A stretch of 64,000 nucleotides of DNA from Gemmatimonadota bacterium (GTDB lineage: Bacteria > Latescibacterota > UBA2968), in NCBI GenBank assembly GCA_026705765.1, contig JAPPAB010000099.1, positions 14,833 through 78,832 of the forward strand, read 5' to 3'. Positions within the stretch are counted from its first letter, which is position 1, and each line of letters opens with the position of its first letter. The position numbers and the translations under genes are program-made. Positions 2,125 to 60,600 of the stretch are shown here, in pieces. The notes below the pieces were generated by a model. It did no database searches. It saw only the letters and a list, made by a program, of their open reading frames with translations, and was not told the DNA's origin.

Positions 2125-2445
2125 CTATTGTATGACAGACCTCGGTGTTGCATTGAGGCGCGTTACGACGATGCGCTCTCGGTCGATCAATGTACCTACC
2201 TGGTCGCTCAATGTGTCGGTCCAATACGGGTCTTCATAGACGGCTTTGTAGAGTTGCTCTCTTTGTTCTTCGCTCTCAAATCGGCGAATCCACACGTAGA
2301 GGTCTTCTTCTTCTTCGCCGACAAAGCTGCCTATGACGACCATGCCTTTTGATATTTGAAATGGGATGATTTCACTTTCCATAAATGCAACCCATTCTTC
2401 GCGTTTTCCCGGTTGGGTGCGATATTGACGTAGTTCAAAGAACAT
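2125..2445 (-). CDS. NIPSNAP family protein
   Basis: 106 aa with the ELRQYRTQPGKREEWVAFMES dimeric alpha/beta-barrel signature typical of NIPSNAP. Confidence 0.55.
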   Translation of the reverse strand: MFFELRQYRTQPGKREEWVAFMESEIIPFQISKGMVVIGSFVGEEEEDLYVWIRRFESEEQREQLYKAVYEDPYWTDTLSDQVGTLIDRERIVVTRLNATPRSVIQ

Positions 2446-2489
2446 GTTTTTCTCCTTTGTGAGTGTTGTGAGGGGAATAATGAGACGAT

Positions 2490-2822
2490 TTATTCCAAAG
2501 TAAAAAAAGATGTGGTTTCGCTTTGCTCAAATCTCAAAATTGCATCGTGATGTGTGCGAAGAAGAGATAAAATTGTGTTCGTTGAACAATTGCCTAAGCG
2601 AAGCCAAATGACTTTGGGCGGATGACCATATAGAAAGCTTTTTTGGTGAAAGTCCGAGTCTTTGGAAACAATGACATAGCCGTTTTGGGCTGCATAATCC
2701 CAAATATCCGAGTCATCCGCTTCTTCCATGCCTATATCTCGGATGTGTGAAGAATTCGGATACAGGTCCTTCAAGTCTGTAACCAATCTGTAAGAGAGGT
2801 TTTGATCGAAGAGAAATCTCAT
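2490..2822 (-). CDS. DUF5615 family PIN-like protein, putative toxin of a DUF433/DUF5615 pair
   Basis: 110 aa with RFLFDQNLSYRLV...VSKDSDF. Overlaps the upstream DUF433 gene by 4 nt (ATGA). Confidence 0.55.
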   Translation of the reverse strand: MRFLFDQNLSYRLVTDLKDLYPNSSHIRDIGMEEADDSDIWDYAAQNGYVIVSKDSDFHQKSFLYGHPPKVIWLRLGNCSTNTILSLLRTHHDAILRFEQSETTSFFTLE

Positions 2823-3046
2823 GTCGAAGAAACAGACATAAGTCTGCGCTCTCGGTCTGCAGCAAATGCCAGGCAGGCGCGGATGTCTTCTCGTGTAAGT
2901 TCGGGAAAATCGCTCAATATTTCTTCAACAGACATGTCTGAGGCAAGATAGTCAAGTACGTCATAAACGGTGATCCGCATGCCGCGAATACACGGTTTTC
3001 CACTGCGTTTGCCCGGTTCAATGGTGATGATGTCTTGATAGTCCAT
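2819..3046 (-). CDS. DUF433 family protein, putative antitoxin
   Basis: 75 aa with IEPGKRSGKPCIRGMRITVYDVLDYL, characteristic of DUF433. Translationally coupled to the DUF5615 gene. Confidence 0.6.
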   Translation of the reverse strand: MDYQDIITIEPGKRSGKPCIRGMRITVYDVLDYLASDMSVEEILSDFPELTREDIRACLAFAADRERRLMSVSST

Positions 3047-3069
3047 TGTCTTCCTTTTTTTGAGACGAT

Positions 3070-4254
3070 TTAAATCTGTTCATACCACCGCACATTGCCC
3101 GTTGACATGCCGCTTGCGGCGATGTCCAATTTGCCGTTGCCGCTGAGATCTGCGATTGCCATTTGCCCCATGCCAATGCGGTTGTCAATTTGTTCAATGT
3201 GCCAGGTGTCTGTTTCTAAATTTTCTGGGCGATAGATGTTGAGGGCTGTGCCGGGTCCGTTGTATCCGGCGATGACTTCCAGTGCGTTGTCGCTGTCTAT
3301 GTCGCCACACCAGAGCGAATGTCCGCGGTTGAGTTTGTCGCTGATCAGATGCCGTTCCCAGGCGTCTGCTCGGATGTCGCCGGTGGCTTTGTACCAGACG
3401 AGTTCATTGCCGTGCCAGGGTTCGATAGAGAGTATTTCATTGATGCCATCGCCATCCATATCTACGGCAAAGGTTTCACTGCTTTCGCGGGGGCTTATGG
3501 TCCATCGGTTCCATTTTTCCTCGAATCCATCCCCTTTGGGCGGTTCAAACCAGATCAGGCCGTCACGCGTGCCGAGCAGTAAGTCCAGGCGGCCATCGCC
3601 ATCTACGTCGCATACGCTCAGGCCGTGGTTGAGTCTCAATTGCCCGTCGATTAACCGCTTTTCCCACGGTTCATTTACCGGGTCTTGTGGTATGCGGTAA
3701 CACCACAGTTCCCCCGGCGCATCAAAGTCGTTGATCTGGCTTCCCGGTCCTTGCAGTGTTGCGACAAATAGCAGGGGTTGATTGTTGACATCTACCATTG
3801 CAATGCGGTGTGAATAGGGTACCCAGTCGATGAAGTGCTGTGTCCAGATGTCGCTTTCTTCAGATGCTTGAAACCAGTGCAGATATTCCGGCGGTATCCG
3901 CTGTCTTCGTCCAAATCCGCTGCTCGCAATGACGTCTTTGCGACCGTTGCTCGTGATGTCGAATACCGATAGTGAGATGGTGCCGGGGTGCGCTTCTGAT
4001 ATGATTTGTTTTTCAAAATGGGGTCCTTCGTACAGGGCGATCATCGAGGTTCCCATAGAACCGGCTACGATGTCCAGGTATCCGTTGTTTGTGACATCGG
4101 CGACTGTCATGCCATAGGCGCTGCGGATGTTGTCGTCTATTTCGTGAATTATGAACATTTGTTTTCCTATTTTGACGGTTCTCCTTATCGGTCGTGGTTC
4201 AATATACCGCGTGTTCAGGGTAAAATCAAATGTAGATCGCCGAATTCGTGCCAC
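3070..4254 (-). CDS. FG-GAP repeat protein (VCBS/ASPIC-like)
   Basis: Repeated DxDGDGxxD calcium-binding FG-GAP motifs (DVDGDGRLDLL, VDMDGDGINEI, GDIDSDNALEV, ADLSGNGKLDI). The 5' end overlaps queA by 40 nt, so the true start is probably internal. Confidence 0.6.
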   Translation of the reverse strand: MARIRRSTFDFTLNTRYIEPRPIRRTVKIGKQMFIIHEIDDNIRSAYGMTVADVTNNGYLDIVAGSMGTSMIALYEGPHFEKQIISEAHPGTISLSVFDITSNGRKDVIASSGFGRRQRIPPEYLHWFQASEESDIWTQHFIDWVPYSHRIAMVDVNNQPLLFVATLQGPGSQINDFDAPGELWCYRIPQDPVNEPWEKRLIDGQLRLNHGLSVCDVDGDGRLDLLLGTRDGLIWFEPPKGDGFEEKWNRWTISPRESSETFAVDMDGDGINEILSIEPWHGNELVWYKATGDIRADAWERHLISDKLNRGHSLWCGDIDSDNALEVIAGYNGPGTALNIYRPENLETDTWHIEQIDNRIGMGQMAIADLSGNGKLDIAASGMSTGNVRWYEQI

Positions 4255-5324
4255 AAATAATTTTTGTTGAGTGCGGCTTCATAGGTCAGTTTGAGGTGAT
4301 CTAATCCCGCCAATGCCTGGAGCATGGATAGATGTGTGGCACTCGGTTCGTGCATTCCGGTGAGTAAGCTATCTACGGTCTGCATGGTGTGACCGGGTGA
4401 GATTATCAGGGATGTCCATCCTTCGCCCTGAGAGACTTGTCCGGTTTTGTCGGCGACGGTTTCGAGTGCGCGCACGACTGTTGTGCCAACGGCGATGATT
4501 CGTCCGCCGTTTTTTCGCGCGTTGTTGATTGTCCGCGCTGTTTCGGCTGGTACGCGGTAGTATTCCTCATAAGGCGGTTCATCGGCTTCCAGGCTCGCCA
4601 CGCCGGTGTGCAAGATCAGGGGGGCAATTTGTATGCCTTTTGCGACTAATTTTGTGATGATTTTGGGTGTGAATGCTCTGCCTGCTGATGGCATTTCAGC
4701 GCTGCCTACTTCTGTTGCATATACGGTTTGATAATAGTCGATAGGCCAGTCGTTTTGCACATAGCCATACCGGATGGGCATGCCGTATATGTCCAGGTAG
4801 GTGTCCAGGTCATAGGGCAGGTTCAGGGTTGCTACCCACAGGCGAACAGAAGCGTCGGGGTTGTGCCGCAGTTCGGGGCGATAGGGGGCGTGTAGTTGTG
4901 CTGATCCACTACCGGGTAATGTGAAGATTTCGCCTGCCTGTGCGTGGTAAAACGGTTGCGTTGCGATACCGTTGGGTTGACGTATTTCAACTGCCCACAT
5001 GTCGGCGGGCAGTTGCGTTGATAGATGCAGTCTGAGTTCTGTTCCATCGGGCCTAATGATGGGCAGAGATGCTTTGCGCGTGCCACTGGTGTTGATGACG
5101 ACGACGTCGCCCGCATGTAATACGTCGGGCAGGTCGCGAAATGCGATGTGTTCTATCGCATCATTTTTTTGCCAGGAGACCATCAACCGAACCTGGTCCC
5201 GGCTGAGTCCGCGCGCTTCGGGCGGTTCGCCCGCTTCCAGGTTGGATGGCAGGTCGAATATTAGAGAGTCCAGTTTTGAGTCCATCATTGTGATGGGGAG
5301 TACTGTGTTGGGTATTATGGACAT
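4215..5324 (-). CDS. queA: S-adenosylmethionine:tRNA ribosyltransferase-isomerase
   Basis: Matches E. coli QueA along its length: YQTVYA, ILHTGVASL (TLHVGAGTF), IIAVGTTVVRALE (VIAVGTTSVRSLE), LTGMHEPSATHLSMLQALAG, YEAALNKNYLWHEFGD. Confidence 0.8.
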   Translation of the reverse strand: MSIIPNTVLPITMMDSKLDSLIFDLPSNLEAGEPPEARGLSRDQVRLMVSWQKNDAIEHIAFRDLPDVLHAGDVVVINTSGTRKASLPIIRPDGTELRLHLSTQLPADMWAVEIRQPNGIATQPFYHAQAGEIFTLPGSGSAQLHAPYRPELRHNPDASVRLWVATLNLPYDLDTYLDIYGMPIRYGYVQNDWPIDYYQTVYATEVGSAEMPSAGRAFTPKIITKLVAKGIQIAPLILHTGVASLEADEPPYEEYYRVPAETARTINNARKNGGRIIAVGTTVVRALETVADKTGQVSQGEGWTSLIISPGHTMQTVDSLLTGMHEPSATHLSMLQALAGLDHLKLTYEAALNKNYLWHEFGDLHLILP

Positions 5325-5338
5325 GAGATGTCTCCTTT

Positions 5339-6040
5339 CTATTTTGCGAGGGTGGTGAGTAGTTCGCGTGCGGCATAGCGTCCACTGGGATAATTGCCGT
5401 TCAGGAGTTCGATGAATCCCGGTACACTCGTTTCCGGCAAGGGGCGGTCACTGATGTCTTCAAAGGGGAATGCTTCTCGGTGCATTTGCGTTCGCATGTC
5501 GCCGGGATCTACCCAGTAGATGCGCCAGTCGGGGCGTTCTGCTGCGAGTACGTTTGAGAGTTGTTCAAGCGCGGCTTTCGAAGAGCCGTATCCGCCCCAG
5601 CCGGGGTACGGCTCGCGAGCAGCGTCGCTGGTGATGTTGATTACGCGGGCGCCTGATTTTAAGGTGTGTTGGAGTGCCTGGAGCACACCCAGGGGCGCGA
5701 TTGTGTTGGCGCGATAGACGTCTGCCAATATATCGAGGGGGTAGTCGAGCAGTTCGGGCTGGGGACTCGGTCCCAATATGCCCGCGTTGTTGATTACGGC
5801 GTCGAGGTCCCCTATTTCTTTTGCTGCGTGCGCCAGTGCTTTCCGGTGTTGGGGGTCTGTTACGTCTCCGGCGATGGCGGTGACTTCGGTCCATTTGGCC
5901 AGTTCTTTGCGCGCGTGTTCGAGTGCGTCTGCGCCTCTTGCGTTGATGATCAGTCGCCAGTTTTGCTGTGCGAGTTCGCGCGCGAGAGCGAGACCCAGTC
6001 CGCGAGATGCGCCGGTGATGAGAGCTGTTTGTGTGGACAT
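5339..6040 (-). CDS. SDR family NAD(P)-dependent oxidoreductase
   Basis: N-terminal TGASRGLGLALAREL Rossmann motif; 233 aa. Confidence 0.75.
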   Translation of the reverse strand: MSTQTALITGASRGLGLALARELAQQNWRLIINARGADALEHARKELAKWTEVTAIAGDVTDPQHRKALAHAAKEIGDLDAVINNAGILGPSPQPELLDYPLDILADVYRANTIAPLGVLQALQHTLKSGARVINITSDAAREPYPGWGGYGSSKAALEQLSNVLAAERPDWRIYWVDPGDMRTQMHREAFPFEDISDRPLPETSVPGFIELLNGNYPSGRYAARELLTTLAK

Positions 6041-6168
6041 GTTGAATCCTCCTGTAAGGATGAGAAACTATCTGTTTGTTGTGGTCAAAATGTAGCATAA
6101 AAAAAAGCCCTCTGCATCGCACAGAGGGCGTGTTTGATACCCGTTCTTTAGGACAGGAGAGTGCCTGT

Positions 6169-7230
6169 CTATCTGAGCAGCGCACCACAATCCCAATCCT
6201 TATACGCTTTCATCGCATTCCGAACCGAGAATGCACGCTTCCATAAGATCGGGCAGAAGACGCACGATAGCACAGATAGACGATAATCGTATTCGAATTG
6301 GTCTCGGCTGTAATTTTCGATGCCACCAGCTATGAGCTTTCTATAATAGAAATTCATAAGGGGCGTTTCGAGTGCTTCTCGTTCGGATGTTCCGTGGATC
6401 AGCATGTAGGCGAGGTCGTAAGCACCAAGTCCTCGCTTGTAGGTTTCCCAATCGAAGAGAATGATCTGGTCCTTTGATGGATCCTTCGGGTAAAACAGGT
6501 TCCACAGATGCGCGTCGCCGTGTAGCATTGTGATATTTTTCCCGTTTGCGACACGCGCCAGGAATATATCGGGATATCCGTGAATCACGCGTTCCATTAT
6601 CTCGATGTGAGCGGAATCGAGGTCGTCGCCCAGTTCTCGTGCCAGTGGCTTCAGGGCTTCTTCAAAGCTGGCGCAGCTATCGCGTATGTCTTTTTCGGAT
6701 ATTGCCTGGGCCATGCGGAGTGGACCACCGGCCTGCATCATGAACGGCCACTCGTCCAGACGTGGATCATTCCACCATTGAATGTGATATTTGAGCAGTT
6801 CTTCAATTACGGCTTTGTGAAGTTGTTCGGTGGCCTCCTTTGGCCCATCTTTATGTGTCACCGACAGGTCTGGCATGAGATAGTGACAGTTTTTCTCATT
6901 GTGATCGAATCCACAGTCGAAAACGGGACAGACAGATGCGTCCGGCGTTTTGGGCGCGAGGTCATCGTAAAATGTCCATTCGACGACTCCGCCTCCGAAC
7001 CATCCCTTTCGATAGACCTTTAACACAATCGCATTTGGAATATCACCCACGTAGTCGTCGCTGAATGTCAGCGAGAGCCTGTCCCATTCCGCGCACGATG
7101 ATCCGAACGAGTCCGTTTTTTCTACGGATGTGACCGAACCCGATTTCAGGAATCCGTTACGACTAAATCGATCCGTTAGGAGCGCAGGCGTCAGTTGTTC
7201 GGCATGGGTGATGGGTTCCGATAATTTCAT
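6169..7230 (-). CDS. Aminoglycoside phosphotransferase (APH)-family kinase-like protein
   Basis: HGDAHLWNLFY Brenner motif and DWETYKRGLGAYDLAY. Confidence 0.6.
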   Translation of the reverse strand: MKLSEPITHAEQLTPALLTDRFSRNGFLKSGSVTSVEKTDSFGSSCAEWDRLSLTFSDDYVGDIPNAIVLKVYRKGWFGGGVVEWTFYDDLAPKTPDASVCPVFDCGFDHNEKNCHYLMPDLSVTHKDGPKEATEQLHKAVIEELLKYHIQWWNDPRLDEWPFMMQAGGPLRMAQAISEKDIRDSCASFEEALKPLARELGDDLDSAHIEIMERVIHGYPDIFLARVANGKNITMLHGDAHLWNLFYPKDPSKDQIILFDWETYKRGLGAYDLAYMLIHGTSEREALETPLMNFYYRKLIAGGIENYSRDQFEYDYRLSVLSCVFCPILWKRAFSVRNAMKAYKDWDCGALLR

Positions 7231-7392
7231 TAGCTCTTTTCTTGGGAATAAGGACGTATTGAAGGAAGAGAGATTATTTTGTATTCATTAAGGGATCATG
7301 CTATAATGCGTTCCTGAAGGCTGGGACAAAATCGTTGTTATAAAAAATAAAGCCAGAGTTTTGCGTGGCGTCAAGGATGAAAGGAGAAAATT

Positions 7393-50578: not shown

Positions 50579-52216
50579 TTATGTGGCGGCATAGCTCAGC
50601 TGGTAGAGCAGTGGAATCATAATCCATGGGTCGGGGGTTCGAGTCCCTCTGCCGCTACCAAACGTATCGTCTCGCAGAACTTCTGACCTGTCCGGTTCAT
50701 GACAGGAACGAAATAAAGCGAGTTGAATCTCATCAGGGGTATAAATCAGTTGGTTGATGTGTAGCCTTAACAGGTCTTTCTGTTCCTCTGGTGTGGCTTC
50801 ATTATATAATTCTTCAAAGGTCATAAGTTTTTGCTTCATTTGAGCAACACTTATGGCCTTTTGTTTTGCCTCTGCCAGAGTTGCCTCGTTCTCCATCATC
50901 TCCTGTTCTATTTGGCTTTTTTGTTCTTCGAGGGCAATAATTTTCTGACTGATGGTTTTAAGGCCGACCTGCTGACCAGCGATGCTTTCCACCAGGACAT
51001 CCAGCTTCTTCTCAATATCTTTGAGGTTCCTGCGATGATTTTCCTGTGCTTGCCTTAAGGTTTTCATACGCTCCGATTGGCTTGTCGTAGCTTCTGCGAT
51101 AAGCTCTTGAACACGTTTTTGATCATCACTGAGTTGAATTAACCGATCAGCGACTACTTGTTCAAGGGCCGGTGCAGACACCGGCTTCATTTTGCATTCT
51201 TCGTTTCCACGATGGATTTTACAGGTGCAATGGTAGTAGAAATAGGGCTTTTTTTGGTGGTTTCGAGCCTGCGAAGGGGTCATGTGAGACTGGCACCAGC
51301 CACATTTAATCAGACCTTGAAGTAAGAAGGGGTGAAGGTTTTGTTTCCTCCCTCTTGTCCCAGAGACTCGGTTCGTTTCTATAACGGCTTGCACTTTATT
51401 CCACAATTCCATCGGGACAAGAGGATCATGCTGGCCTTCATATACCTTACCTTTGTGAGTAATTTTTCCAATATAAAATTCATTTTGGAGCATACGCATA
51501 ATCTGTGTCTTATTGAATTTTTTGCCAGAATAGACCTTATCCCTTCTCGACACATACGATTTTGTACGATAGCCTTTTTCATTTATGATTCGGGCTACGG
51601 CACGAAAACTTTGCTCTTTGACGTACGTCTGAAAAATTAAGATCACCAGTTCTCGTTCTGCTTCATTGGGCTTTAGAACGCCCTTGTTGTCCGGATCAAT
51701 GTCGTATCCAAGGAGGTGCTGTCCGCCATTACGTAGGCCCTTCTCAGCACGCCACTGCATTTTTTCTTTCGTGCGCTCACTGGTACGTTCTCTTTCTAAT
51801 TCAGCCGTTGCGAGAGAAATTGAGAGAGCAAACCGACCCATAGCGGTTGAGGTATCCCAATTCTCATTGATTGAAATGAATATGGTTTCGTTTTCTTCTA
51901 AAAATTCGTGGAATTGATAAAAGTCGATGATAGACCGGCTGACGCGATCAATTTTTGTGCATAACACCGCGTCAATCTTACCCTGCTCAATGTCTCGAAC
52001 CATTCGCTTGTATCCAGGGCGGTCTAAATTCTTACCCGATTTGCCTTCCTCACGATAGATTGCCACCGCTTTCCATTCTTCTTCTGGCGATGTGGAATCC
52101 TTGATTTCGACGTACTTCTGAAGCAGATCAATTTGGGTGTCCAAACTGCCATTTTTCACTTCGGCTTGCAGGTCGGTTGAGACCCGTGCATAAAGGCCAC
52201 ATTTTACCATATCCAT
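50579..52216 (-). CDS. Large serine recombinase (resolvase/invertase catalytic domain, recombinase domain, zinc ribbon)
   Basis: N-terminal YARVSTDLQ catalytic Ser motif, recombinase domain, Cys-rich zinc ribbon (CGWCQ...CTC), coiled coil. The last ~26 codons run antisense through the tRNA-Met gene with no in-frame stop. Confidence 0.8.
   Translation of the reverse strand: MDMVKCGLYARVSTDLQAEVKNGSLDTQIDLLQKYVEIKDSTSPEEEWKAVAIYREEGKSGKNLDRPGYKRMVRDIEQGKIDAVLCTKIDRVSRSIIDFYQFHEFLEENETIFISINENWDTSTAMGRFALSISLATAELERERTSERTKEKMQWRAEKGLRNGGQHLLGYDIDPDNKGVLKPNEAERELVILIFQTYVKEQSFRAVARIINEKGYRTKSYVSRRDKVYSGKKFNKTQIMRMLQNEFYIGKITHKGKVYEGQHDPLVPMELWNKVQAVIETNRVSGTRGRKQNLHPFLLQGLIKCGWCQSHMTPSQARNHQKKPYFYYHCTCKIHRGNEECKMKPVSAPALEQVVADRLIQLSDDQKRVQELIAEATTSQSERMKTLRQAQENHRRNLKDIEKKLDVLVESIAGQQVGLKTISQKIIALEEQKSQIEQEMMENEATLAEAKQKAISVAQMKQKLMTFEELYNEATPEEQKDLLRLHINQLIYTPDEIQLALFRSCHEPDRSEVLRDDTFGSGRGTRTPDPWIMIPLLYQLSYAAT
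50585..50660 (+). tRNA. tRNA-Met (anticodon CAT; elongator Met or tRNA-Ile2 type, probably not initiator)
   Basis: Manual fold: acceptor GGCGGCA, D-arm GCTC/GAGC, anticodon stem GTGGA/TCCAT with loop ATCATAA, T-arm GGGGG-TTCGAGT-CCCTC, CCA. G1-C72 pairing and absence of a 3xGC anticodon stem argue against initiator. Confidence 0.8.
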
Positions 52217-54546: not shown

Positions 54547-55590
54547 ATGGACAACGCATTGACCACCAGGCCGCACAGCGCGGTCGATAAAACGTCCCAG
54601 ACACTTCAACCGGGATCCATCGCCCACAACACAAAGCGGATGTATTGCCACGCTACCACGCACTTTTTGAATTGGTGCGAGAAGATCGACCAGGCCGCAC
54701 AAACCAGCGGCGACCTCGACGGGGTACTTATGCAAGCCGCCGTGCGCTTTCACGGCAAACATGTCACGCCCGAAGAAATCAATCAATATCTGACACATCT
54801 GCACCTCAATGGCAAAAGCCCTGCATCCATCGCTAGCGTCCTGACAGCGATCAAATTCATGGCCCGACACACAGGCACGTCCATTGACTTTTTGCCAGCA
54901 GACACAACGCTGAAGGGCATCAAGCGCAATGCCGAGGCGCAAGCGCGAGGTCGCGGCCAAGCCACTGGTATCAAAGTCGATGACGCTATAACGATGGCGA
55001 CCATCGCAGACAGTCCCGCGCATACCTCACCGACCGACAGCAAAGAGACACCAGAGAAGGCATGGATCCGCCGAGCGCGTGATGCCGCTATCATTCTCAC
55101 AATGAGCAATGGACTTTTGAGGATTTCAGAGGTTGGCGCGATCCTATGCGAGCATATCAGTACTCGAGAAAACGGATCGGGCAGTCTTCTAATCCCGCGC
55201 TTAAAGACTGACCAAGAAGCCGAAGGGCGAGAAGTCTATCTGCAAAAGCGGACAATCAAAGCAATCGAAAAATACCAGCGGCTCTCTGGCGTGAGTGACG
55301 GCCCACTGTTCAGGCGCATCTATCAAAACAGCAAAATGGGCAAAGACGCGCTCGGTATCACTGCGATACGGGATATGATCAAAGACGTGGCCGAAAAAGC
55401 GCAAATAGATGTTACCGGAATTTCAGGCCACAGCTTCAGGGTGGGAACAGCGCAAACACTCGTGGAGAAAAAAGCGACAATGCTACAACTCCAGACGGCT
55501 GGCAGGTGGAAAGATACGCGAATGCCAGCCAGATATACCGAGAAAGAGGAATTGGCAAAAGGTGTGATTGCCACAATCCTAGGGGAATAG
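54547..55590 (+). CDS. Tyrosine-type site-specific recombinase/integrase
   Basis: GHSFRVGTAQ (HxxR) and C-terminal RMPARYTE catalytic Tyr region; N-terminal core-binding domain. Confidence 0.8.
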   Translation: MDNALTTRPHSAVDKTSQTLQPGSIAHNTKRMYCHATTHFLNWCEKIDQAAQTSGDLDGVLMQAAVRFHGKHVTPEEINQYLTHLHLNGKSPASIASVLTAIKFMARHTGTSIDFLPADTTLKGIKRNAEAQARGRGQATGIKVDDAITMATIADSPAHTSPTDSKETPEKAWIRRARDAAIILTMSNGLLRISEVGAILCEHISTRENGSGSLLIPRLKTDQEAEGREVYLQKRTIKAIEKYQRLSGVSDGPLFRRIYQNSKMGKDALGITAIRDMIKDVAEKAQIDVTGISGHSFRVGTAQTLVEKKATMLQLQTAGRWKDTRMPARYTEKEELAKGVIATILGE

Positions 55591-55662
55591 AAAAGGGACC
55601 AAACAATTTGAATTGTTCAAACGTATCAACCTCAAAATTCAGAGTGAGCGCACAAAAAAGTC

Positions 55663-55699
55663 TGGCGAGCCATTCGATTAAAATGGCTCGCCAGACTCA
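55663..55699. repeat. Perfect 15-bp inverted repeat (stem-loop)
   Basis: GTCTGGCGAGCCATT-cgattaa-AATGGCTCGCCAGAC, preceded by an A-run. Confidence 0.7.
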
Positions 55700-55973
55700 G
55701 CACGACACAATTTTGTATTGACTTCATGCTGGCAAATGTACAGTGTTTACAAGAGCAAGTTTTGGCTTCAACTGTTCAGCATTCGCAATAACACTTTCGA
55801 CTCCAGAACTGATATTGCATGTCTCTTTGATGTTGCTGTTCTATACGCTAGAATTTCCAGAATAGATCGTGCTGGTCTAATTCATTGTCCAGCAATTCAT
55901 TTTGTAATCGCACAGGCTCAGGCAACCGACACAGCGATTCGATAAGCAGAAACAAACTTTTAGCTCAATGAGT

Positions 55974-56633
55974 TTATATTTCAAATCCTCCTCTTTTATC
56001 AATGCGAGAAATAACACCTTTAAATTCAAAAATTATTTTAATCTTCTCCAATATCATTAACATAAATATCATTCGTAAAGATTCTTTAGGAAACACCGCC
56101 TCAATTTCTTCTATCAATTTTCGTTTACCATCGTCTCTGTGGTATTCGTACGCATTTAACCATGCCATCAAAACTTCCTCACTGTTGACCATCAATTCTC
56201 CATAAGTAATTCTCAACGATTTCCGAAAATGTTTATTAGAAAACACATCTTTGACAGATCGGAAGTATTGAGTCATCAATGGGTGTCTCATATTACAACT
56301 AAGCAAATCTACCATCTTATTAAAATAAAAAGGCTCTGGATACCTCCTACTCCCCTGAAGTATAAATGGTCTCAACCTATGTAAGATTCCTGAACGACGT
56401 AAAATATCAATATTTGATTTCTCCACCAATTCAACACTATCATCATCAAAATCTATCTTCACGCTCCCACTAACTTTCAAACCTCCACATCTCTGAATCA
56501 AATTAAAAAATTCATCTACTTCATTACAGAACCCTAATAGCGTTTCCCATGCCTCACCAGGAATATTTCCTCTAATTGTTTTTCCAGAGGACTCACCTTT
56601 TATGGTAATACTGTACGATTTATCCATTATCAA
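55974..56633 (-). CDS. Hypothetical protein, very AT-rich cargo gene
   Basis: 219 aa with no recognisable domain; about 30-35% GC versus about 58% for the host. Confidence 0.45.
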   Translation of the reverse strand: MIMDKSYSITIKGESSGKTIRGNIPGEAWETLLGFCNEVDEFFNLIQRCGGLKVSGSVKIDFDDDSVELVEKSNIDILRRSGILHRLRPFILQGSRRYPEPFYFNKMVDLLSCNMRHPLMTQYFRSVKDVFSNKHFRKSLRITYGELMVNSEEVLMAWLNAYEYHRDDGKRKLIEEIEAVFPKESLRMIFMLMILEKIKIIFEFKGVISRIDKRGGFEI

Positions 56634-56828
56634 TACCCAATTTCTCTTTCGCTTCTTCTGACTTAACAGGCGTCACTACCACCTTTGCCAATTCCTCAGC
56701 CGTATAAGGAAATTGAGGCCACCCTACCTCCTCATTTCCCTGCTCTTTACACTACTAATCACCTATACTATAAACCAAAATCAATCACCCCAAAATCACC
56801 GGCACTATTGAATATAAGTCCCATTTGT

Positions 56829-57323
56829 TTAGCTATCGCCTCCGGTATATTTCTTCGCTCGTTTACCTGTCTGTTTTATGTCAATAAAGAACGATGTTGC
56901 AAGGAATCCAGTGATAAAAGAGAATAGCCAGAGAATGAAATAAAACACATTGCCATTGTCTCGATAACGCTTCAAATCTTCCGTTTCTTTGTCAAATTCC
57001 GCTTTCTTTCTTTCGATTTCCTCTTGCTCTTTCTTTCTCGCCTCTATTTTTAGTTTGGGCACGTCATATTTTCGCATAAATGTATATGCGACCTCTTTTT
57101 CCTCAGTACCCCTCTTAAACCATCGGTATTCACCAGCCAGAATTTGATATGGCTCTCTGCCGCTATGTGGTTCTCTAATAATCGCCTTTGCCATAATGCG
57201 AAGATTGAGATTAGGCGAGTCTATGTATTCCCTCATATCCTCTCGGATAGACTCATTGATTTGTTCTCGTGTCATCACATCCACTTTCTGAAGGAAATTA
57301 CTGGAAAGCCCATTACTCAGCAA
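56829..57323 (-). CDS. Hypothetical coiled-coil protein with C-terminal transmembrane segment, AT-rich cargo gene
   Basis: KEQEEIERKKAEFDKETEDLKRY coiled coil and FYFILWLFSFITGFLATSFFI transmembrane helix; the start may be the internal Met (MTREQ). Confidence 0.4.
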   Translation of the reverse strand: MLSNGLSSNFLQKVDVMTREQINESIREDMREYIDSPNLNLRIMAKAIIREPHSGREPYQILAGEYRWFKRGTEEKEVAYTFMRKYDVPKLKIEARKKEQEEIERKKAEFDKETEDLKRYRDNGNVFYFILWLFSFITGFLATSFFIDIKQTGKRAKKYTGGDS

Positions 57324-57426
57324 ACACTTGATTATATATAGTTGAAGTTATGGTTGGTTGTCAATAAAGTCTTTGATAGCGAGGCTGGCAAAGTCAGATC
57401 GTATTGTTGAGACAGATACCCGATAA

Positions 57427-57639
57427 AGCGGAGCGCAAGGCCCGCTCTTTCGGCGGATGTGGAGTAATGGCCGCCTGGGGGATAATGCTATCATAGTCAA
57501 CGCTGTGCGCGATATAATCAAATCCTGCGCCCGCGACGCCGGGGTTGACGGCTATATCTTCGGGCACTCGCTCCGGGTTGGATCCGCTCAAGGCCTAGCC
57601 GAAAAAGGCGCAATAGCCCGCCTCAAATATGGTCACTAA
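57427..57639 (+). pseudogene. Truncated tyrosine-integrase remnant (internal HxxR region only)
   Basis: DNAIIVNAVRDIIKSCARDAGVDGYIFGHSLRVGSAQGLAEKGA aligns with KDALGITAIRDMIKDVAEKAQIDVTGISGHSFRVGTAQTLVEKKA of the intact integrase at 54547. The N-terminal domains and catalytic Tyr are missing. Confidence 0.65.
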
Positions 57640-57692
57640 ATGCCCCCTTTTCGGTAACACCTAAACTTTCAGGCTCACGATCTGGAGAAAAC

Positions 57693-57983
57693 ATGTCAAA
57701 ATCTAAACGTCCGGTCGGGCGGCCAAAGACAACCGACCTTGTAACGTTCTCCATAAAGATACCTCGCAAGCTACAAGCCCAACTCGACAAGGCCGCTGGT
57801 AACTCGCTCGATAGCCGAAATATGATCATCAGGCGAGTACTCGAGCAATACTTCAATGGCGAATTGTCCAGGGCTGATTTGACGCCGCTTGATTATGGAC
57901 ACAGTATCAACTTTGATGCACCGGCGGTACGGCGAGAAGTGCCGCACCAGCACCCACAGGAGAAATTGTCTTACAGCGAATAG
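57693..57983 (+). CDS. Ribbon-helix-helix (CopG/Arc-like) DNA-binding protein with N-terminal AT-hook-like RPVGRPK
   Basis: TFSIKIPRKLQAQLDKAAG...SRNMIIRRVLEQYF fits the RHH beta-strand plus two helices. Confidence 0.5.
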   Translation: MSKSKRPVGRPKTTDLVTFSIKIPRKLQAQLDKAAGNSLDSRNMIIRRVLEQYFNGELSRADLTPLDYGHSINFDAPAVRREVPHQHPQEKLSYSE

Positions 57984-59422: not shown

Positions 59423-59608
59423 ATGTGGGTAGAAAGCCGCCAGCGGCTGATTGCTCTTGAGAGCAGAGACATCAAGCTGGAATGCCGCGAGATCGTCTTC
59501 GACAATGGCCGCAACATCGAGGTCGTGCGCTATCCATCACCACAAGCCGCCGCCGTCCGGTATAACGCCATAGTCCAACGCCTCACAGAAAGCGGCCTGA
59601 TCATCTAA
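59423..59608 (+). CDS. Small hypothetical protein, paralogue of 60394..60600
   Basis: MWVESRQRLIALESRDIKLECREIVFDNGRNIEVVRYPS versus MWLQNGRRLLALEGRDISLTGRDIVFEGNTRNTEVVRYPS. Confidence 0.5.
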   Translation: MWVESRQRLIALESRDIKLECREIVFDNGRNIEVVRYPSPQAAAVRYNAIVQRLTESGLII

Positions 59609-59642: not shown

Positions 59643-59879
59643 ATGCCAGAATATGAGGCCGCGCCGCCAGAGATCGCCGAGGCGATTGAGATAGCTACGC
59701 CCGTAGAAACCACCACCAACCACACACCGGAAAAGTTCGTTGTCCGTCTGAAGTTCTTCGGATTGGTCACGCTCAAGCCCGAGGATTTTGTGAAACGGCT
59801 TGAGGAATTGTGTCAGGAGTTCACCGAGTCCAAAGAGGAATACAGCTTCAGTTGGGATACAGACTTTGCCGCGGAATAA
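59643..59879 (+). CDS. Small hypothetical protein, paralogue of 60214..60390
   Basis: FVVRLKFFGLVTLKPEDFVKRLEELCQEFT versus LTVKLKLSGQVARRQAFVKHLDRLCQTFT. Confidence 0.45.
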   Translation: MPEYEAAPPEIAEAIEIATPVETTTNHTPEKFVVRLKFFGLVTLKPEDFVKRLEELCQEFTESKEEYSFSWDTDFAAE

Positions 59880-59933: not shown

Positions 59934-60203
59934 ATGTCACAGCCAGAGATCACGTTTAGGCATGGGCTATGCTCGGCCTCGATCTACGAGAATGAATACA
60001 CACGCGGAGAGGAAAAATTCACTGTCCGCACTGTCACGTTTCAGCGCAGTTACCTGGACAAAGACGGCAACTGGCAGACCACCAACAGCTTGAAGGTGAA
60101 CGATATACCGAAGGCCATCCTCGTTTTGCAAAAATCGTACGAATTTCTCACATCGAACAGCATGGCCGATGTGGGCGCCGATGCTGAATTTGATGGCGAA
60201 TAG
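59934..60203 (+). CDS. Small hypothetical protein
   Basis: MSQPEITFRHGLCSASIYENEYTRGEEKFTVRTVTFQRSYLDKDGNWQTT, about 90 aa. Confidence 0.4.
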   Translation: MSQPEITFRHGLCSASIYENEYTRGEEKFTVRTVTFQRSYLDKDGNWQTTNSLKVNDIPKAILVLQKSYEFLTSNSMADVGADAEFDGE

Positions 60204-60213
60204 GGAGACATCA

Positions 60214-60390
60214 ATGGCAAAAGAAAAGGTAACACCTGCCGCGCCTGACGGCCTCACAGTGAAGCTGAAACTCTCGGGACAGGTCGCCAGGCGCCAGGCG
60301 TTTGTCAAGCACCTCGATAGGCTCTGCCAGACGTTCACAAATGGCCGTGTGGTCTGCTCAATGACTCACGCGCCCAACGAAAGGAACTAA
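60214..60390 (+). CDS. Small hypothetical protein (paralogue of 59643..59879)
   Basis: Begins MAKEKVTPAAPDGLTVKLKLSGQ within the ORF listed from 60169. Confidence 0.4.
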   Translation: MAKEKVTPAAPDGLTVKLKLSGQVARRQAFVKHLDRLCQTFTNGRVVCSMTHAPNERN

Positions 60391-60393
60391 ACA

Positions 60394-60600
60394 ATGTGGC
60401 TTCAGAATGGCCGCCGGTTACTGGCACTTGAGGGGCGCGACATCTCCCTGACAGGACGGGATATTGTCTTTGAAGGTAATACCCGCAACACGGAGGTCGT
60501 GCGATACCCTTCATCCAAAGCCGCCAGTGAGCAATTCAGCACGATCATAAAGGCTATTGGAGAGGATCGAATCATCATTCAGGACTTCGAGGACGAGTAA
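60394..60600 (+). CDS. Small hypothetical protein (paralogue of 59423..59608)
   Basis: Paralogous similarity (aligned under 59423..59608). Confidence 0.5.
   Translation: MWLQNGRRLLALEGRDISLTGRDIVFEGNTRNTEVVRYPSSKAASEQFSTIIKAIGEDRIIIQDFEDE

Follow-up and report, generated by a model that had tools for sequence, protein, structure and literature searches.

Experiments have revealed phage-defence genes among the integron cassettes whose function had been unknown (bioRxiv 10.1101/2024.07.02.601719). Further described systems come close to the locus studied here, among them HEPN-domain toxins (MNT-HEPN, SO_3166 type), ApeA, a single-gene defence protein, and AbiT, in which a small soluble protein stands beside a small membrane protein (AbiTi and AbiTii). 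Here, we analysed an AT-rich segment at about 55,700 to 57,390 of a stretch of 64,000 nucleotides, referred to as the window, from contig JAPPAB010000099.1 of a Gemmatimonadota bacterium (GenBank assembly GCA_026705765.1, positions 14,833 to 78,832 of the forward strand; annotated as a metagenome-assembled genome of Gemmatimonadetes). The segment holds two open reading frames (ORFs) on the minus strand, ORF-B and ORF-A, which an earlier note, made by inspecting the sequence, had regarded as a strong candidate for a two-gene defence or addiction cassette. We consider it probable that the segment instead represents two unrelated single-gene units lying side by side in one lineage, with ORF-B perhaps as a stand-alone, enzyme-like conflict or defence gene and ORF-A as a passenger.

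55974 to 56627, minus strand: ORF-B, a soluble protein of 217 amino acids from the ATG at 56627 (219 amino acids from the TTG at 56633); the public call P0001 likewise has 217 amino acids
56829 to 57275, minus strand: ORF-A, a protein of 148 amino acids from the ATG at 57275 (164 amino acids from the TTG at 57323), matching the public call P0005

Both minus-strand ORFs are present where the earlier note had placed them (55974-56633 and 56829-57323). The lengths of 219 and 164 amino acids given there are correct for the longest ORFs, which begin with TTG, but the likelier ATG starts yield 217 and 148 amino acids. Among the 121 family members aligned, 108 have Met at the position of the ATG of ORF-B, the third residue from the TTG, and the ATG start of ORF-A also agrees with the start of its homologue (MTREQIN).

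Like AbiT, the locus places a small soluble protein beside a small membrane protein. However, neither protein matches an Abi family, the pairing in the window is not conserved, and the AbiTii proteins that we observed next to relatives of ORF-B are unrelated to ORF-A. The likeness to ApeA is a short one: the protein from Comamonas contains the ORF-B heptapeptide WLNAYEY, and a helix of 25 residues aligns. In contrast to ORF-B, it comprises 466 amino acids with the domains ApeA_NTD1 and HEPN_Apea, whereas ORF-B has 217 amino acids, another architecture and no such Pfam match. Moreover, the Comamonas locus had been picked by that same peptide pattern, the motif is loose in seven ApeA homologues, and a profile-profile comparison with hhalign gave a probability of 13.5% over 26 columns; the link was rejected. 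In the Comamonas nitrativorans locus (L028, 5278-6678) the peptide is located at the junction of ApeA_NTD1 and HEPN_Apea, and homologues keep a loose N-W-L-x-x-Y-E. Membership of ORF-B in the HEPN superfamily was likewise considered and is unsupported, because the Rx4-6H motif is absent from the conservation table of the ORF-B family; there was no match to a HEPN model either.

ORF-B shares with the defence cassettes of integrons that relatives lie in cassette arrays at two loci (L024 and pHRM2a, see below) and that it is a small, self-contained gene of higher AT content than its host, devoid of a known domain. In contrast, ORF-B of the window lies in an island at tRNA-Met beside a Xer-like integrase, with neither attC nor IntI. 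The motifs of the ORF-B family were not found in the supplement of the integron study cited above.

Judged by its sequence, ORF-B is intact and belongs to a large family, so far without a name, whose proteins have about 215 amino acids. A word search yielded three close homologues, and a profile built from four sequences was then searched against 1.84 billion cluster representatives. This search retrieved 1,108 representatives at E <= 1e-3, 271 of them at E <= 1e-30, nearly all of which are 200-235 amino acids long and match over their full length. ORF-B matches the profile from end to end and carries both family motifs, LHRLRPF(I/V)L and NSExxLxxWLNAxEYHRDxxK, in the form LHRLRPFIL and NSExxLxxWLNAxEYHRD. 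In an alignment of 121 members R88 is invariant, H85, P89, L92, E100, N150, W158, L159, N160, E163, Y164 and H165 are conserved in at least 90%, and R166, D167, K170 and K197 are also strongly conserved; the ORF-B of the window keeps all conserved residues. Every name given to family members by their sources is 'hypothetical protein', and no extra Pfam domain or domain fusion was found in the longer members. In line with the earlier note, which had seen no recognisable domain in either protein, Pfam, NCBIfam, PADLOC and PHROGs gave no significant match for ORF-A or ORF-B; the best E values in PHROGs were 0.013 and 0.13.

To characterize the genomic context of the family, 19 loci from about ten phyla were compared, with neighbouring genes related to each other by all-against-all BLASTP. 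They derive from Latescibacterota, Chloroflexota, Desulfobulbaceae, Planctomycetes, Acidobacteriota, Actinomycetes, Methylobacter, Margulisiibacteriota, Caulobacterales and Gemmatimonadales. In all 19 (L001 and L010-L036) the GC content of the family gene is below that of the rest of the locus, by 0.1 to 18 points and by about 8 points on average. The low GC content of ORF-B in the window is therefore a trait of the family and not a peculiarity of the island.

The clearest mode of carriage was observed in a Gemmatimonadales metagenome-assembled genome (L024, CAVOMQ010000001.1, a contig of 2.4 Mb). Here, a chromosomal cassette array at 2170-7375 contains at least seven near-identical attC sites (GCCTAAC...GTTAGGC) of 90-134 nucleotides. 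The family gene (5977-6639) lies exactly between the attC sites at 5845-5960 and 6634-6746 and is the sole gene of its cassette, and its TAA stop falls inside the next R'' core. It thus reads as a textbook single-gene integron cassette, and an integron integrase was not found within the 12.6 kb fetched for this locus. A simple attC scan detected seven sites in this locus, one in the plasmid locus described next and none in shuffled sequence. Because this relative is a one-gene integron cassette, the family represents a self-sufficient transferable unit and a good candidate for functional screens of cassettes.

The only plasmid match of the family, on pHRM2a of Desulforapulum autotrophicum (L036, NC_012109.1, 54865-68709), is likewise located in a long cassette-like array of genes on the same strand, which includes lnu(F), a TIR protein and HigBA; a metallophosphoesterase and an exonuclease are also among the neighbours. 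One attC site of this array is canonical, and the others are interrupted by repeats of 198 nucleotides. Apart from the family gene, we noted that lnu(F)/linG of this plasmid is 99.3% identical to the clinical resistance cassette, and the lnu(F) cassette may have an environmental source here. The repeat of about 198 nucleotides is present in five copies, has an inverted repeat of 23 nucleotides and seems to have entered attC sites at their R' ends; it may be a miniature element that targets attC.

Neither a strict nor a relaxed scan (R'' RYYYAAC ... R' GTTRRRY, with paired arms) found an attC-like site in the window. ORF-B itself was thus rejected as an integron cassette, as the window contains no attC and no IntI-type integrase, and this mode is confirmed for relatives only. 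The family moves and persists as a one-gene unit, either as an integron cassette or as a solitary gene in small variable islets.

The islet mode is shown in a related symbiont. On a second Gemmatimonadetes contig (L029, 6336-7672) from the same metagenome as contig L004 (ERZ23500055), a solitary ORF-B paralogue with 38% identity has a GC content of 43% in a locus of 61% and is located beside a divergent YoeB-antitoxin pair, amid metabolic genes. The only operon-like context that we observed is that of a 281-amino-acid family member (L032, 4175-8076), which is the fourth gene of a tightly spaced run on one strand with overlapping stops and starts, encoding a Ser/Thr protein kinase, a 400-amino-acid protein, a 239-amino-acid protein, the family member and a 78-amino-acid protein. 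In IMG/VR, one contig carries a family member, and this is the Kouleothrix contig already included as L015.

The AlphaFold2 model of ORF-B, computed from the 121-sequence alignment, has a predicted local distance difference test score (pLDDT) of 94.4 and a predicted template modelling score (pTM) of 0.89. It comprises an N-terminal beta-beta-alpha-beta-beta unit (residues 5-73; a four-stranded sheet with a helix) followed by a helical domain (77-214), and a Foldseek search with this confident model revealed no convincing structural neighbour. A profile search of PDB sequences was likewise without a match. All conserved polar residues are carried by the helical domain, with H85, R88, E100, N150, E152, N160, E163, Y164, H165, R166, D167 and K170 as the near-invariant set, which we read as an enzyme active site. 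ORF-B would act in the cytoplasm, where the helical domain may perform the chemistry and the N-terminal domain may sense or regulate. From the conserved residues and the genomic context, we tentatively propose, at somewhat less than even chances, that ORF-B is a self-contained effector of the conflict or anti-phage type.

The context in question is that of the neighbours of the family gene. Within 4 kb of it we observed ParE/Phd, PIN, TIR_2 and AAA_21 proteins, transposases and an N6 methyltransferase, and in two Caulobacterales loci (L023 and L025) a protein with an AbiTii domain is encoded directly upstream. Strong PADLOC matches among the neighbours comprise type I restriction-modification, a CBASS cyclase, SoFic, mad2/3, PDC-S06 and PDC-M41A/B; on further contigs, a YoeB-antitoxin pair, or MazE together with a resolvase, adjoins the family gene. 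In many cases, but not in all, relatives of ORF-B thus lie among genes for toxin-antitoxin systems and defence. Given these locations, the defence role put forward in the earlier note is a reasonable inference for ORF-B, but not for the pair as one cassette.

ORF-A differs from ORF-B in being nearly an orphan: among 5.8 billion protein clusters it has a single homologue, P0006, with 64% identity in the search and 54% in the full alignment. Its soluble N-terminal part of about 100 residues is conserved and is followed by a charged helix, a hydrophobic segment at about 108-132 and a short basic tail, and the protein is predicted to be tail-anchored in the inner membrane, with the N-terminal domain in the cytoplasm. 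Between ORF-A and P0006, the ratio of nonsynonymous to synonymous substitution rates (dN/dS) is about 0.5 in the N-terminal part and 0.6 overall, values that are compatible with a real gene under weak constraint. The best of its non-significant PADLOC hits (E = 0.0011) was to an unrelated model, and searches of PDB sequences, plasmids, 50,697 phage genomes and IMG/VR yielded no match. We infer that ORF-A is an unrelated, independent passenger gene.

The AT-rich segment has a GC content of 37.3% over 55974-57323, compared to 51.8% for the window and 52.8% for its host part (1-50,500), and is the lowest 1,350-nucleotide stretch within the 64 kb, about 3.5 standard deviations under the mean. For ORF-B (33.6%), set against the 56-59% of the 8 kb of host DNA adjoining the island, the earlier figures of 30-35% in a host of 58% are appropriate; they do not apply to ORF-A (40.0%) or to the region as a whole. 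Contigs from four other samples contain the sequence from 55400 to 57800 with 100% identity, and three of these contigs span both junctions; the segment is therefore not the product of a chimeric assembly. Nor is it contamination, which the earlier note had raised as the other possible artefact. By its composition the segment is foreign cargo, carried in an island at tRNA-Met. An Rfam scan of 55,400-57,800 was without a match, and no flanking repeats of at least 10 nucleotides were found to bracket the segment.

Signals for transcription are located at both ends of the pair:

55658 to 55698, minus strand: strong intrinsic-terminator hairpin with a stem of 16-18 bp followed by TTTTTT, which would end a transcript of ORF-A and ORF-B
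56628 to 56828, minus strand: spacer of 201 nucleotides between ORF-A and ORF-B, with no attC-like or other significant structure
57335 to 57364, minus strand: promoter-like TTGACA-18 nt-TATATA, about 60 nucleotides 5′ of the ORF-A ATG, as read from the sequence

The promoter-like site was missed by a consensus scanner, because A is the last base of its -10 hexamer. Transcription of both genes probably proceeds leftwards, from this site (57364-57335) to the hairpin (55698-55658). The DNA fold of the spacer has a z-score of -0.37, which indicates no significant structure, and there is no obvious canonical Shine-Dalgarno sequence before either ATG.

The arrangement of the two genes could be taken to indicate a lineage-specific two-gene module for defence or abortive infection, with ORF-B as the soluble sensor or enzyme and ORF-A as the membrane effector or anchor. 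They are adjacent on the same strand, lie 201 nucleotides apart between a common promoter-like site and a common strong terminator, and are both AT-rich within the same foreign segment, and relatives of ORF-B do occur in defence and toxin-antitoxin islets. However, the main criterion for such a system is co-inheritance, and this was not observed in any of the three loci with a close homologue that could be read. In L003, the contig with the ORF-A homologue, an unrelated coiled-coil lipoprotein is encoded downstream, and in L001, with the closest ORF-B homologue, an unrelated membrane protein is encoded upstream; by tblastx, these two contigs and L029 each have just one gene in common with the window. 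Moreover, save for one pair of closely related Caulobacterales contigs, the family gene has no conserved neighbour in the 19 loci, and membrane-like genes upstream of it are not enriched (3/11, with a background of 29%). A recurrent membrane partner is thus not borne out, and the occurrence of a relative as a single-gene integron cassette likewise argues against a two-gene module, as does the difference in GC content between the two genes (33.6% and 40.0%). A conserved adjacent pair, as expected for a two-gene toxin-antitoxin or addiction module, was found neither in L001, L003 and L029 nor in the 19 family loci. Since co-inheritance is lacking, a two-gene system is unsupported, and we regard the module as distinctly improbable. 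The same data could be combined in a broader scenario, which we consider rather doubtful. ORF-B would then belong to an undescribed, widespread family of anti-phage or conflict genes that act singly, with at least 1,100 clusters (at 50% identity) from about ten bacterial phyla. The family would have a fold without a solved relative and a new catalytic set of H85, R88, E100, N150, E152, H165, D167 and K170, would spread by cassettes and islets, and may have recruited ORF-A as a lineage-specific membrane partner in this sponge- or marine-type Gemmatimonadetes.

ORF-B might also serve neither defence nor addiction but be an accessory gene, for instance for a stress-response or small-molecule-modifying enzyme or a regulator, that accumulates in variable regions. 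Uncharacterised families are common in variable islands. Integron arrays carry many functions, as illustrated by the lincosamide nucleotidyltransferase, metallophosphoesterase and exonuclease genes of pHRM2a; several family loci have neighbours of housekeeping or metabolic type only, PADLOC has no match, and phages and plasmids almost never carry the family. We nevertheless hold this unlikely, as true defence and toxin-antitoxin genes recur beside the family, with AbiTii directly upstream in two loci, and as the gene is AT-richer in every locus and distributed patchily over about ten phyla, which is typical of conflict genes, although neither point is decisive. The least credible explanation is that the segment is inert debris and both ORFs are decaying remnants of the event that destroyed the neighbouring integrase gene. 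While the segment adjoins a pseudogenised integrase, neither ATG is preceded by an obvious Shine-Dalgarno sequence and ORF-A is nearly unique and moderately constrained (dN/dS about 0.5-0.6), both ORFs are uninterrupted and flanked by promoter-like and terminator signals, and ORF-B is of full length and keeps every near-invariant residue of its family, which numbers more than 1,000 clusters; debris is therefore very improbable.

Several results weigh against our preferred explanation, i.e. two independent genes with a conflict function for ORF-B. Homology searches gave no indication of an activity of ORF-B: neither it nor the 121 family members gave a Pfam or NCBIfam match above noise, 120 of the 121 have no match in PADLOC-DB v2 (where the best hit of ORF-B, at E = 0.015, is to an unrelated model), and Foldseek against PDB and BFVD returned nothing below E = 0.1, only generic helical bundles. 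The family had no match in 50,697 phage genomes, in keeping with its near-absence from phages and plasmids. Several loci contain metabolic or housekeeping neighbours only, and the evidence from defence neighbours is qualitative, comprising about 20-25 loci without a background rate. The lack of association between the two genes is based on one ORF-A homologue and a handful of close ORF-B homologues, and some probability remains with a partnership peculiar to this lineage; the promoter is a consensus-like match only. On the other hand, a match to phage structural or housekeeping families, which the earlier note had named as the finding that would speak against a defence cassette, was obtained neither in PHROGs nor in the phage genomes, and BFVD likewise gave nothing.

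For the window, these results suggest that the locus comprises two separate unknowns at a decayed integrase junction and not one two-gene system, and the object of interest would be the ORF-B family and not the pair. The family is not represented in Pfam, NCBIfam, PADLOC or PHROGs, and its confident model lacks a convincing solved neighbour. If ORF-B acts alone, this gene of 650 bp would define a new and easily testable family of more than 1,000 sequence clusters.

The segment is part of an island with the following landmarks:

50579 to 52216, minus strand: large serine recombinase of 545 amino acids with Resolvase, Recombinase and Zn_ribbon_recom domains
50585 to 50660, plus strand: tRNA-Met (CAT), the left border of the island, identified by ARAGORN
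54547 to 55590, plus strand: intact tyrosine integrase of 347 amino acids (PF00589 Phage_integrase, 6.3e-10, and PF13495 SAM_4)
57400 to 57612, plus strand: integrase remnant of 73 codons with an in-frame stop, left from a paralogue of the intact integrase (residues 238-310)
57693 to 57983, plus strand: ribbon-helix-helix protein (RHH_1, E = 5e-4), with which the island returns to normal GC content

To the right of tRNA-Met the GC content falls at once from 54-58% to 42-47%. The island continues with the serine recombinase, small ORFs, a helix-turn-helix protein, the tyrosine integrase, the AT-rich segment, the integrase remnant, the ribbon-helix-helix protein, RadC and further genes (the RadC gene was called in L004). 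The tyrosine integrase, which is convergent with ORF-A and ORF-B, matched only Xer models in NCBIfam, far under their cut-offs (48 bits versus 220), and no IntI-specific model; it is thus best classed as distantly Xer-like and not as an integron integrase. For the hotspot position put forward in the earlier note, no close relatives of this integrase with alternative cargo were found: all relatives have at most 37% identity, and none has ORF-A, ORF-B or RadC nearby. The remnant is real: over residues 238-310, the intact integrase is matched by 57400-57612 with 47% identity (tblastn E = 3e-16, BLASTP E = 8e-13), and the remnant also shows a weak PF00589 match. The segment is hence bounded by integrase sequence on both sides, as the earlier note had stated. 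The remnant is truncated just where the AT-rich DNA ends on the right, and the first approximately 237 codons of a resident integrase gene may have been lost when the segment arrived or through a deletion thereafter.

The large serine recombinase has CcrB/XisF-like matches, far under the family cut-offs. The last 25 or so codons of its ORF run antisense across the whole tRNA-Met gene, and the C-terminus of the protein is therefore encoded by host DNA. A direct repeat of 10 nucleotides, CAAACGTATC, is present at the 3′ end of the tRNA (50659) and just past the integrase stop (55618), where about 0.04 matches are expected by chance for this pair of regions (50579-50668 and 55618-55627). The two copies could be the ends of an element of about 5 kb that spans recombinase to integrase and was inserted with the tRNA on one side and the AT-rich segment on the other.

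Where the island has normal GC content, we furthermore observed two paralogous small ORFs about 1 kb apart, at 59423-59608 and 60394-60600 (61 and 68 amino acids; MWVESRQRLIALESRDI... and MWLQNGRRLLALEGRDI...), which include a direct repeat of 48 nucleotides with 79% identity. The ORFs at 59643-59879 and 60169-60390 may belong to the same duplication.

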